Shown: piece after piece, positions 17,346 through 20,192 of the stretch
How the letters are laid out: each line of letters opens with the position of its first letter
How positions within the stretch are numbered: the stretch's first letter is position 1
Assembly (NCBI GenBank): GCA_016181165.1
Contig: JACOZU010000005.1
Location: forward strand, 1 to 45,001
Direction: 5' to 3'
DNA: 45,001 bases
From: Candidatus Woesebacteria bacterium
GTDB lineage: Bacteria; Patescibacteriota; Microgenomatia; UBA8517
Position numbers and translations under genes: made by a program
Notes under the pieces: model-generated
Told to the model about the DNA's origin: nothing
Seen by the model: the letters and a program-made list of their open reading frames with translations, nothing else
Databases searched by the model: none

Positions 17346-19136
17346 ATGAAAGAAGAATTTATCACTGTAAGCGAGTTAGCAAGCGTGCTTGGTATCTCCC
17401 GTCAAGCAATGTTAAAACAAATCAAAGGAAAAATTAATTCCGGAGAGATAGAAACAAGAACAGAAGGAAAAACCTATCTTATAAAGTTTTTTTCACTACC
17501 TAAAGGTATTAAGGAAAGGTACGAAGGTTCGCAAAAAAAAGCGGTTGAGCAGGCCAAGATTTTAGTAGAAAAACCACAAAAGGATTTAAATTTTGAAAAG
17601 GACCTTTGGGCTGCTGCAGATAAGCTTCGTGGAAATATCGACCCTTCAGAATATAAGTATATAGTTTTAGGTTTAATATTTTTAAAATACGTTTCAGACT
17701 CCTTTTATCAACAAAGAGAAAGACTCCAAAAGTGGATGGGTGATTCTTCAAATAAACAATATTATGTCCCTAACGAAAAGTCCCGAGGAAAGATGCTTGA
17801 AGATAAAGAGATGTATAAAAGAGAAAACGTCTTTTACATTCCCGAAGTTGCCCGCTGGGAGTTTCTACGAGGTAGGGCATCACTTAACGATATAGCCAAA
17901 TATATCGAGGAGGCAATGGAAGCGATAGAAAAAGAAAATTCTGAGCAACTTTCCGGAGTTCTACCGAAAAACTTTGTCCGCATCCCTCTTGAGCCGTATG
18001 TAATAGGTGAGCTTATCAATATTTTCTCACGAATAGAATTTGACCACGACGAAAATAAAGAAAAAGATATGCTGGGTAGAGTTTATGAGTATTTCCTTGG
18101 CCAATTTGCTAGCGCAGAAGGCAAACGAGGCGGGGAATTTTTTACCCCCAGACCACTTGTAAAACTTCTTGTTGAGATTCTTGAACCCTTCGAAAACAGC
18201 CGAGTTTTGGATCCGGCCGCAGGAAGCGGAGGAATGTTTGTTCAGGCAAGCAATTTCTTGAAAGAACACCACAAAGACCCTAACAAAATTGCAATTTATG
18301 GCCAAGAAAGTAACGACACAACCCTTAAATTATGCAAGATGAATCTGGCAATTCGCGGAGTATTTGGAAAGATAGAGTTTGGTAATTCGTATTACGACGA
18401 TAAATTTCGCGAACTAAAAGCAGACTTTGTTTTTGCAAATCCGCCTTTTAATGCTGAATGGGGCCCGGATAGAGTTCCTGAAAAGGATCCAAGAATTGTT
18501 TATGGTACTCCTCCTGCAAGTAATGCAAACTTCATGTGGATTCAACATTTTATCCATCATCTTGCACCAAACGGTATGGCCGGATTCGTTATGGCAAACG
18601 GTGCGCTTGCAGTTGGAGGAAAAGAAGGAAAAATCAGAGAAAAAATTATTGAGAACGATTTAATCGACGTTATTATCGCTTGTCCGCCAAAACTTTTCTA
18701 CAATGTCTCGCTTCCTGTATCACTTTGGTTTTTAACTAAAAATAAAGAGTCGGGTCGCTTCAGAAACCGAAAAGGAGAAACTCTTTTTATAGATGCGCGC
18801 GAAACATTTACACAAATATCAAGGAAGCAGGTTACTTTTACAGATGAACAAATTCAAAAAATTGCAAATGCAGCACGTGCCTGGCGCGGCCAAAATGAAG
18901 CCGGCAAATACGAAGATGTTCCTGGCTTTTGCAAGTCAGTAAAATTAGAAGAAATCGCTAAAAATGGTTATGCCCTCTCCCCCGGCCGCTATGTTGGAGT
19001 TCCTGAAGAAGGCGATGATGGAATTCCTTTTGCTGAAAAAATAAAGACACTCCAAAAAGACTTAGGAAAATATTTTGCAGAAAATGAGAAATTAGAAAAG
19101 GAAATTCTAGAGAACATGAAGAAGATAAAAATATGA
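17346..19136 (+). CDS. hsdM: Type I restriction-modification N6-adenine DNA methyltransferase subunit with N-terminal HTH extension
   Basis: 596 aa. HsdM N-domain (LWAAADKLRGNIDPSEYKYIVLGLIFLKYVSD) starts near residue 87. SAM motif I is DPAAGSGGMF and motif IV is FANPPFN. Residues 1-50 look like a helix-turn-helix (ITVSELASVLGISRQAMLKQIK). Confidence 0.9.
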   Translation: MKEEFITVSELASVLGISRQAMLKQIKGKINSGEIETRTEGKTYLIKFFSLPKGIKERYEGSQKKAVEQAKILVEKPQKDLNFEKDLWAAADKLRGNIDPSEYKYIVLGLIFLKYVSDSFYQQRERLQKWMGDSSNKQYYVPNEKSRGKMLEDKEMYKRENVFYIPEVARWEFLRGRASLNDIAKYIEEAMEAIEKENSEQLSGVLPKNFVRIPLEPYVIGELINIFSRIEFDHDENKEKDMLGRVYEYFLGQFASAEGKRGGEFFTPRPLVKLLVEILEPFENSRVLDPAAGSGGMFVQASNFLKEHHKDPNKIAIYGQESNDTTLKLCKMNLAIRGVFGKIEFGNSYYDDKFRELKADFVFANPPFNAEWGPDRVPEKDPRIVYGTPPASNANFMWIQHFIHHLAPNGMAGFVMANGALAVGGKEGKIREKIIENDLIDVIIACPPKLFYNVSLPVSLWFLTKNKESGRFRNRKGETLFIDARETFTQISRKQVTFTDEQIQKIANAARAWRGQNEAGKYEDVPGFCKSVKLEEIAKNGYALSPGRYVGVPEEGDDGIPFAEKIKTLQKDLGKYFAENEKLEKEILENMKKIKI

Positions 19137-19837
19137 CAAGTATTGATTTCACAAAAGTTTGGAGTGCGATATTGCAAATTGGTTCAATATCTGGATTAAT
19201 CACGCTTATTTACACTGTATTAATAAACCGCAAGAATAAACCCGGATTTAAATTTGGCTTTCGAGGAAGTTCCAGACAAACTTTTCAAAAAGATAAATTG
19301 GAGTATTGTAGATTTGACTACAACGGTATAATTAGAAATAAAAGCGAGAAACCCAATACTATAACGTCCATTAATTTGGTTGTCTGGGAAAATAACAAGA
19401 AAAGGGACAAGACACTTAGCTTCGGTCATGAACCCACTTCTATTTTAGATGTTTCAAAAAATAAAAAGATAAGATTGCCTGTAAATTTTAAACTAAAAGA
19501 AGCAAGGCACTTTCACTTAAAATACGAGATTGCGTTAACTGGAAGCCATGATGAGCAATTAATAAAAGAGAGAGAACCATTACCACATTCTCCTTTTTTA
19601 TCCATATCTAAGTATGACTACAAATTAATATTCGAGGATGTTAATGAAAACCTGTTTGATGATCAAGGGGCTTTAAGAAGTCGAGAGGAAATTAATTTAT
19701 GGTGGACGTTGCCAAACACATTCAAAAAACTTCAAAATGGCAACTTTCTGCCATTTATTAAGCATTATCTACATCTGCAATTAGTGAGACTGAACTTTAG
19801 AATTAAACGAGTATTTTTTAACTTTGGTTTCCAGTAA
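19133..19837 (+). CDS. membrane-anchored protein of unknown family, embedded in the R-M operon
   Basis: 234 aa. ATGA overlap with the hsdM stop. One N-terminal TM helix (VWSAILQIGSISGLITLIYTVLI), then a K/N-rich, beta-looking domain. No motif recognised. Confidence 0.65.
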   Translation: MTSIDFTKVWSAILQIGSISGLITLIYTVLINRKNKPGFKFGFRGSSRQTFQKDKLEYCRFDYNGIIRNKSEKPNTITSINLVVWENNKKRDKTLSFGHEPTSILDVSKNKKIRLPVNFKLKEARHFHLKYEIALTGSHDEQLIKEREPLPHSPFLSISKYDYKLIFEDVNENLFDDQGALRSREEINLWWTLPNTFKKLQNGNFLPFIKHYLHLQLVRLNFRIKRVFFNFGFQ

Positions 19838-19841
19838 TATT

Positions 19842-20192
19842 ATGCAGAGTCAAGTTCAAACATATTTTCCAAATCGCGATTTACTTAATTACTTGCCAAG
19901 TCTAATTCTGGCTATTTTGTCTGTGGTCGTTGCTATTTTTTCTTATTTTTATGTGAAAGGTGTTTTCAAGAAAGCTGACGAGATAGAAGAAAATATATTT
20001 ATTGTTAAGGGTTGGGCTGACAATTTGGAATATATTGTTTATATGCAAAGAGGACCTTATGTTTCCCAACCACTGCTGGACAAAATTGTAGAAAAAGAAC
20101 GTAAGCCATTAGAGGCAGAATTGGAGTCACTCAAAATGGAAAGGCAATTTTTATTAGACAGAGTTCCGCTTTTGGGGGTTCTTAAAAAATAA
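19842..20192 (+). CDS. single-pass membrane / coiled-coil protein of unknown family, embedded in the R-M operon
   Basis: 116 aa from ATG 19842, 4 nt after the upstream stop (the track ORF begins at TTG 19824). TM helix LPSLILAILSVVVAIFSYFYV. C-terminal helical region (EKERKPLEAELESLKMERQFLL). The stop is 1 nt before the hsdS ATG. Confidence 0.6.
   Translation: MQSQVQTYFPNRDLLNYLPSLILAILSVVVAIFSYFYVKGVFKKADEIEENIFIVKGWADNLEYIVYMQRGPYVSQPLLDKIVEKERKPLEAELESLKMERQFLLDRVPLLGVLKK

Follow-up and report, generated by a model that had tools for sequence, protein, structure and literature searches.

Genes embedded in Type I restriction-modification (R-M), BREX and DISARM loci have been described under the term "guilt-by-embedding"; defence functions are over-represented among those in Type I R-M loci, and over half of them lack an assigned function (Payne et al., bioRxiv 10.1101/2024.01.29.577857). 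The same screen gave 145 PADLOC candidates and is also the origin of PDC-M04 (bioRxiv 10.1101/2024.01.29.577857). Open reading frames (ORFs) of unknown function that are conserved in Type I loci are likewise known from Campylobacter jejuni, where they are called rlo genes. Here we describe two genes, designated A and B, that lie between hsdM and hsdS of a Type I R-M locus in a Candidatus Woesebacteria metagenome-assembled genome (MAG). The window is the whole stretch of DNA that was analysed (45,001 nucleotides), and its coordinates are given for the + strand. We place A and B, as new and uncharacterised families, in the known class of accessory genes that are embedded in R-M loci. Our tentative account, to which we assign a probability of about 0.45, is that the hsd locus carries three separate embedded modules (A, B and a DUF3800/PDC-M04 pair) and not one cassette, with A as a putative autonomous membrane effector and B as a putative membrane adaptor.

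The methyltransferase gene hsdM (17346-19136; Pfam N6_Mtase, E = 2.6e-106, and HsdM_N, E = 2.9e-24) is followed by A (19133-19837), which encodes a bitopic membrane protein of 234 amino acids (aa), by B (19842-20192), which encodes a 116-aa protein with a transmembrane (TM) helix and a helical hairpin, and by the specificity subunit gene hsdS (20194-21396; Pfam Methylase_S in two stretches, E = 3.6e-47). A and B are annotated in the MAG as hypothetical proteins HYT60_00665 and HYT60_00670, respectively. The TGA of hsdM overlaps the ATG of A (ATGA at 19133-19136), A and B are separated by 4 nt (tatt), and B and hsdS by 1 nt. Checking the ORFs returned every coordinate, overlap and gap that an earlier first-pass annotation of this sequence had given for the four genes, and the embedding in the hsd operon and a packing fit for translational coupling were borne out as well. 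Its premise that hsdM and hsdS are normally adjacent is sound, as PMC3510504 describes a 1-nt overlap and translational coupling of the two genes in EcoKI. A and B are real genes, with conserved families (119 and 17 clusters, respectively) and confident models.

The first-pass annotation had further read the two genes as one cassette or pair. We compared genomic contexts of the two families (14 for A including the window, about 10 for B, favouring contigs long enough to read) and found no co-occurrence in the 13 further contexts of A or the roughly nine further contexts of B. Since the families were not found together outside the window, we rejected A and B as a conserved pair.

Gene A was found between hsdM and hsdS in four independent loci. 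Besides the window, these are hsdR-hsdM-PDC-M04A-A-83aa-78aa-hsdS (L001; hsdM 25% and A 50% identical to the window), hsdM-198aa-A-hsdS-203aa-hsdR (L021; hsdM 48%, A 47%) and hsdM-A-253aa-190aa-hsdS-281aa-hsdR (L024/L025; hsdM 27%, A 38%), and the four loci span three hsdM families. While the identity of hsdM to that of the window ranges from 25 to 48%, A stays at 38-50%, which suggests that A is inherited independently of hsdM. Further, A is embedded in a Type III-like locus (L022), where it follows an N6_N4 methylase gene (mod) and precedes RhuM (PDC-S05, 1e-145) and ResIII, and it lies beside a Type II pair in a Saccharibacteria MAG (L017; A-N6_N4 methylase-MutH-like nuclease). A is therefore embedded in four Type I loci and one Type III-like locus and sits beside one Type II pair, so that in 6 of 14 contexts it is found inside or beside an R-M operon and adjoins a methyltransferase gene.

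Elsewhere, A adjoins genes for a SIR2_2 protein (L026), a GajB-like UvrD helicase (L028), a Schlafen/AlbA_2 protein (L003), an HTH-M78 peptidase (L020, Solirubrobacteraceae) or a GIY-YIG/T5orf172 protein with a serine recombinase nearby (L018, Doudnabacteria), or it resides in a defence island (L002), where it has a serine recombinase beside it and where Eco57I-type and ParB-methylase genes are also present. Two contexts have housekeeping neighbours, namely nifS-A-secY in Peribacteria (L019) and polA-distant A-like-MazG-like-NUDIX (L023); we take nifS, secY and polA to be such from their translations, by eye. The neighbours of the homologs are largely defence or mobile genes, and linkage to hsd genes recurs in unrelated metagenomes, with A in four M/S loci and B in five loci directly before hsdS. 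Homologs lying mainly outside defence contexts, a match to a housekeeping family or a lack of recurrent hsd linkage, which the first-pass annotation had named as grounds for giving up its proposal, were not what we found. Judged from these comparisons, A is a mobile cargo gene that moves independently of its host operon. No mobility gene and no flanking repeats belonging to A were recognised.

An exhaustive profile search of 1.84 billion proteins yielded 119 representative clusters for the A family (55 at E < 1e-30), mostly from phyla of the Candidate Phyla Radiation (CPR), and a third indexed search with a 47-sequence profile added only 3 further proteins. The AlphaFold2 model of A, built from an 8-sequence alignment, is confident (predicted local distance difference test score, pLDDT, 82; predicted template modelling score, pTM, 0.75) and comprises helices (residues 6-34), a beta-sandwich (39-176) and two amphipathic C-terminal helices (184-201 and 206-230). 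The N-terminal helix reaches a hydrophobicity peak of 1.99 (Kyte-Doolittle, 19-residue window) and contains I16-G17-S18-x-S20-G21-L22, a GxxxG motif that is invariant across the close family. Further conserved positions are N69, S71, N75, W85, P116, D169, N173, D176 and L193-P194-N195; on the sandwich, N69, S71, D169, N173, D176 and WTLPN form a conserved polar patch. Searched against PDB and BFVD with Foldseek, the A model matched only immunoglobulin (Ig)-like sandwiches of a generic kind such as TRAP-beta, ApaG, mu2-adaptin and the TXNIP N-domain, with a best PDB E-value of 1.6e-3, a best viral E-value of 1.3e-5 (an unnamed protein) and TM-scores of at most 0.5.

Comparison of both A and B with Pfam, NCBIfam, PADLOC, PHROGs and PDB sequences gave no match above noise. 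Among 5027 PADLOC models, PDC-M04A and PDC-M04B included, no family was hit at E <= 1, and PHROGs contained no lysis-category match for either protein. Relatives were also not found on IMG/VR contigs in a pattern-limited scan, among INPHARED phages or among PLSDB plasmids, and with zero matches in these three collections a phage or plasmid origin of A and B was dropped. The features that the first-pass annotation had read from the translations agree with these results: a single N-terminal hydrophobic helix in each protein, a beta-looking soluble domain in the larger one, which is modelled as the sandwich, a coiled-coil-like tail in the smaller one, which is modelled as a helical hairpin, and no family motif in either.

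Gene B behaves as part of a lineage. It lies 1-2 nt 5' of hsdS in five independent loci (the window, L004/L005, L007/L009, L008 and L030), all of them Type I loci in which it is embedded. Identities to the window in L004, L007, L008 and L030 are 67-85% for hsdM, 64-84% for hsdR and 61-67% for B; hsdS is only 29-55% identical to the orthologs of the lineage, as would be expected of its variable target-recognition domains. By these identities, B is fixed within a single Microgenomates Type I lineage and tracks its hsdM. Both the linkage of A to methyltransferase genes across R-M types and the fixed junction of B with hsdS are real.

The B family comprises 17 clusters at 63-80% identity, with 27 invariant columns among them, plus distant relatives at 37-45%. 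All 17 homolog clusters start at the MQ(N/S)Q ATG, and an alternative TTG start of B at 19824 is therefore unsupported. The AlphaFold model (pLDDT 76) shows one long helix that includes the TM segment (Kyte-Doolittle peak 2.42, 19-residue window), followed by a conserved helical hairpin. Foldseek with this model returned only generic helical hairpins at E > 0.6. Comparison with the holin_LLH model TIGR01673 of NCBIfam gave E = 0.098 and 13.1 bits, below the cut-off of 34.75, and B was not classed as a holin.

The start regions of B and hsdS have a motif of about 21 nt in common, AATAAT-ATGCAAAATCAAATT. It is found at 20188-20208 (+) at the start of hsdS, where it encodes MQNQI, and as a diverged copy at 19836-19856 (+) at the start of B; the motif is also common to the two genes in L004, L007, L008 and L030. 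Since B and hsdS have the same start region, a direct repeat (about 21 nt) lies on either side of B. It could be a scar left by duplication when B was inserted, a reinitiation site that matches the output of B and HsdS, or a pair of repeats that permits the precise loss of B. Two consecutive small membrane-protein genes in L006 both open with AATAAT-ATGCAAAATCAAATT.

One B homolog stands alone, without hsd genes: in L031 (1629-2416) it lies between an RVT_3 (RNase H-like) gene, whose 3' end it overlaps, and a Ser_hydrolase gene. Here hsdS and hsdR may have been lost. Ser_hydrolase genes also flank the hsd loci of the window and L001; the window gene (26624-27193, minus strand) was named by eye from its translation and is presumably of this kind. 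Distant B-like genes are located directly 5' of genes of unknown family in L006/L011 and L013-L015, and in L016 a B-like gene is followed by a gene for a 154-aa TM protein and then by a SIR2_2 gene.

For the orientation of both proteins in the membrane we relied on the distribution of lysine and arginine (K/R) residues. B has 2-4 K/R after its TM helix and 0-2 before it, and this K/R-rich flank suggests that the helical domain is cytoplasmic. In the short forms of A (n = 61, including the window protein), an average of 0.9 K/R precede the TM helix and 4.0 follow it, so that the sandwich is predicted to be cytoplasmic. The long forms (n = 17; 216-492 aa, all but one of at least 312 aa), with averages of 4.0 before the TM helix and 1.5 after it, have the reversed bias, which predicts an external sandwich and thus the orientation opposite to that of the short forms. 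These long forms, which lie outside the window among the proteins P0080-P0115, carry a soluble N-terminal domain of 85-280 aa and no signal peptide, and their N-terminal domains gave no Pfam match.

The first-pass annotation had considered an insertion between hsdM and hsdS unusual. For these loci this view did not hold, as in related loci the slot regularly accommodates DUF3800/PDC-M04A proteins, an NYN nuclease and unrelated membrane proteins. Among the loci with B, the interval from hsdM to B varies from locus to locus and is occupied by A in the window, by a gene for a 187-aa TM/coiled-coil protein in L004, by DUF3800 genes in L007 and L008 and by a gene for an NYN-domain protein in L030. 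The interval from hsdS to hsdR varies just as much: the window has the PDC-M04 pair there, L004 a gene for a 210-aa TM protein (54% identical to a relative in L030), L007 a gene for a 122-aa protein and L008 one for a 277-aa protein. DUF3800/PDC-M04A is also present in the hsdM-hsdS interval of L001, L007 and L008; the DUF3800 proteins of the window and L001 match weakly (22% identity). These CPR loci regularly carry cargo at their M/S junction.

Many unrelated small membrane proteins are encoded at the M/S and S/R junctions of related CPR hsd operons, namely at 7436-7999 and 9540-10172 in L004, 1863-2459 and 4445-5056 in L021, 6690-7451 and 9267-10112 in L024, 9025-9261 in L001 and 4676-5167 in L030. 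Only two of them, L004_210 and L030_163, are homologous (54% identity). An all-against-all BLAST search of the cargo of unknown function found recurrence only for L004_210/L030_163, L006_253/L011_242 and L013_389/L015_378. Membrane proteins seem to be a common type of cargo in CPR hsd loci.

The third embedded module of the window follows hsdS. It consists of a DUF3800 protein gene (21389-22093), a candidate defence gene that matches DUF3800 at 5.8e-11, PADLOC PDC-M04A at 1e-58 and phrog_3732 at 5.6e-30, and of a gene for a PDC-M04B-like partner of 145 aa (22090-22527; PADLOC PDC-M04B, 1.9e-9). The DUF3800 gene overlaps hsdS by 8 nt and the partner gene by 4 nt, so that every junction from hsdM to the PDC-M04B-like gene is either an overlap or a gap of at most 4 nt. 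No terminator-like sites were found on the + strand between hsdM and 22527. After a gap of 124 nt, hsdR (22652-25705) encodes the restriction/translocase subunit, with Pfam matches to HSDR_N, SWI2_SNF2, T1R_D3-like and T1RH-like_C (E-values 3.4e-88, 3.4e-70 and 5.3e-45). HsdM, HsdS with two Methylase_S stretches and HsdR with HSDR_N plus a superfamily 2 (SF2) motor are thus all encoded on one strand, as in a Type I R-M system.

A promoter-like site, TTGACA-16 nt-TATAAT, lies at 17311-17338 (+) and matches the consensus at 12 of 12 positions. It is the top scorer in the 9.4-kb region scanned and ends 7 nt 5' of the hsdM ATG; a sigma-70-perfect site at this distance suggests a leaderless or near-leaderless transcript. 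No obvious Shine-Dalgarno sequence precedes the genes further down the hsd operon. The G+C content (GC) of the hsd locus (about 17000-26500 of the window) is 0.36-0.39 and that of its flanks 0.44-0.48, with single-gene values of 0.32 for A, 0.34 for B and 0.315 for the DUF3800 gene. No convincing direct repeats were found to flank the hsd locus, and the nearest tRNA genes, at 12943-13094, lie over 4 kb away from the edge of the low-GC island. We conclude that the hsd locus, a Type I R-M operon of low GC at about 17.3-25.7 kb, was acquired horizontally.

Some additional features of this region were observed. HsdM is extended at its N-terminus by about 80 aa (residues 1-80; 17346-17590) that resemble a helix-turn-helix domain (weak HTH_17 match, residues 6-47, E = 0.032); the extension is kept in the L004 and L008 orthologs, with the common start ...ITVSELA..VL. 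Directly 3' of hsdR, a 70-aa ORF (25730-25942) encodes a C-terminal hydrophobic helix, and its PHROG matches are weak and non-significant, including a holin family at E = 0.08. In a 166-aa ORF at 14357-14857, a long Pro-Thr/Pro-Ser linker (PTPSPTPSPSPTPSPTPSPTPKPSPTP) connects a hydrophobic N-terminal segment to a C-terminal domain; by eye, we take its product to be secreted or wall-associated.

Our three-module account builds on what the data establish directly: the gene structure, the operon packing, the membership of A and B in their families, the independence of the two genes, their recurrent embedding and the predicted folds. A repeatedly settles beside methyltransferase genes, apparently of Type I, II and III systems alike, and would be an autonomous accessory defence effector that acts at the membrane. 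It may oligomerise via its invariant GxxxG TM helix, with the beta-sandwich and its conserved polar patch as a putative sensing or regulatory domain, and by riding in R-M operons it would gain expression and co-transfer. B sits directly before hsdS and would be translated from a start context that the two have in common; it may serve as a membrane adaptor with the HsdM2S1 core and could, for instance, tether the methylase/restriction complex to the membrane. B-like proteins in general may act with whichever gene follows them.

Several points weigh against this account. Defence activity, the effector and adaptor roles and the oligomerisation are all inferred, as is the contact of B with HsdS or HsdM. 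By sequence and model, neither protein matches a known defence, toxin, pore or holin family. The short and long forms of A conflict in their predicted topology, and this is the main obstacle to choosing between a sensor/effector and an exclusion protein. Two contexts of A (L019 and L023) have housekeeping flanks, and B was found once without hsd genes (L031). The context samples are also small, with 14 for A and about 10 for B, and biased to longer contigs.

If A works as an effector, it would represent a compact single-gene membrane-acting defence module, mainly of CPR bacteria. Very little of the immune repertoire of this group has been explored, and RefSeq-based catalogues such as PADLOC overlook it. 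Should B bind the methylase core, Type I enzymes would have their first dedicated membrane anchor, which would bear on the cellular site where restriction meets incoming DNA. Regardless of function, the M/S and S/R junctions are cargo slots in which the cargo turns over while the B-hsdS junction stays fixed, a pattern useful for embedding-based discovery of defence genes.

A more specific version, which we consider distinctly improbable, makes B a dedicated fourth, membrane-tethering subunit of the CPR Type I enzyme that is made in step with HsdS via the identical reinitiation site and set where foreign DNA enters, and A a methyltransferase-linked effector family that provides backup when modification or restriction fails, for Type I, II and III alike. 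E. coli Type I enzymes were reportedly found associated with the cytoplasmic membrane by Holubová and co-workers, which would make a dedicated tether plausible. The proposal of the first-pass annotation, that A and B form one membrane module held inactive by HsdM/S and released as a PrrC-like abortive-infection guard when R-M is inhibited, is very unlikely in our view. In its favour, the two genes adjoin each other, are packed for translation and are expressed together with hsdM and hsdS, both proteins are membrane-anchored, and PrrC sets a precedent in a Type I locus. However, A and B do not occur together in any other context examined, and neither protein matches PrrC or any PADLOC model. 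A is found with three Type I families, with Type III-like and Type II systems and outside R-M, which argues against a conserved HsdMS contact; given this diversity of partners, PrrC-style masking of A by one specific HsdMS complex, such as that of the window, is unlikely. What stands of the earlier interpretation is the embedding and its recurrence, while the pairing, the guard bound to a single complex and the oddity of the M/S position find no support. Scarcely credible is the idea that B is a degenerate partial duplication of hsdS (N-terminal codons plus coiled-coil helices), either inert or competing with HsdS for HsdM. B and hsdS do have the same first five codons and the upstream AATAAT, and the sole hhalign match between B and HsdS falls on the conserved C-terminal helix of HsdS (residues 378-390). 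Yet this match covers 13 columns at a non-significant probability of 2.2%, for which we dropped B as a derivative of the HsdS coiled coil; B has a TM helix where HsdS has none, and B-like proteins also occur away from hsdS. The 27 invariant columns across 17 sequences point to purifying selection, which disfavours B as a decaying fragment.

A further reading, unlikely if by no means far-fetched, makes both genes passengers, selfish or neutral. As mobile genes or toxins of the addiction type, they would be kept because R-M operons are often transferred and strongly expressed, and they would contribute to neither defence nor R-M function. The independent movement of A, its occurrence as a single-gene insertion amid housekeeping genes (L019) and near recombinases (L002, L018), and its GC, which is lower than that of the surrounding hsd genes, would all be expected of a passenger. 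Nevertheless, neither a mobility gene nor flanking repeats could be recognised for A, a folded domain and invariant TM residues are kept by purifying conservation in several CPR phyla, and 6 of 14 contexts have A immediately beside a methyltransferase gene. B, for its part, was kept at 61-67% identity while the hsdS specificity domains and the cargo of its lineage turned over. Rather improbable, too, is that A, and possibly B, is a surface exclusion protein in the style of Sie, Imm or Ltp, in which an outward Ig-like sandwich would block phage adsorption, DNA injection or uptake. A generic Ig-like sandwich on a single TM anchor would suit this role, as would the 17 long forms, in which positive charges before the TM helix and the lack of a signal peptide place the sandwich outside, and an acidic stretch, FEDVNENLFDD, resembles calcium-binding loops by eye. 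In the 61 short forms, however, the charge distribution (0.9 versus 4.0 K/R) predicts a cytoplasmic sandwich, the domain of B after its K/R-rich flank is likewise predicted to be cytoplasmic, and no copies were found on viral contigs or phage records, the usual home of exclusion genes.

Among known systems, PrrC of the E. coli EcoprrI locus (prrABCD) is likewise an accessory gene that is embedded in, and co-expressed with, a Type I operon, and it offers a conceptual model for backup defence. It is a soluble ABC-ATPase/anticodon nuclease encoded between hsdS and hsdR and physically masked by EcoprrI, whereas A is not bound to one R-M family. Neither A nor B has the ATPase or nuclease domain of PrrC and RloC, with which their sizes (234 and 116 aa) and predicted folds are incompatible. 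The rlo genes of C. jejuni show no sequence relation to A or B and, as far as the published text states, are not membrane proteins; in strain M1, rloA and rloB are located between hsdR and hsdS, in contrast to the M/S junction occupied by A and B.

CBASS Cap15-type TM/beta-barrel effectors, PycTM and RexB are membrane-disrupting abortive-infection effectors. They resemble A in combining an N-terminal TM segment with a small beta-rich soluble domain and in their proposed membrane oligomerisation. A differs in having no linked signal-generating partner such as a cyclase and in pairing one TM helix with an Ig-like sandwich and not a beta-barrel; effectors of the Cap15, PycTM or RexB type were absent from the PDB results of Foldseek for A. 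T4 Imm and Sp, lactococcal Sie2009 and Ltp are phage-encoded superinfection-exclusion membrane proteins. They are small, single-pass, defence-associated and without a conserved family, like A and B; A and B, however, were not found on viral contigs or phage records, and their charge bias places the domains in the cytoplasm.

The closest likeness is to the guilt-by-embedding candidates. That set was built from RefSeq, while A and B are almost confined to metagenome bins of CPR bacteria and match none of the 5027 PADLOC models. Like its members, A and B are uncharacterised, encoded on the same strand as the operon, nested in hsdMSR and recurrent. The window locus also holds bona fide PDC-M04A and PDC-M04B, and in L022 A adjoins another candidate of the set, PDC-S05/RhuM.

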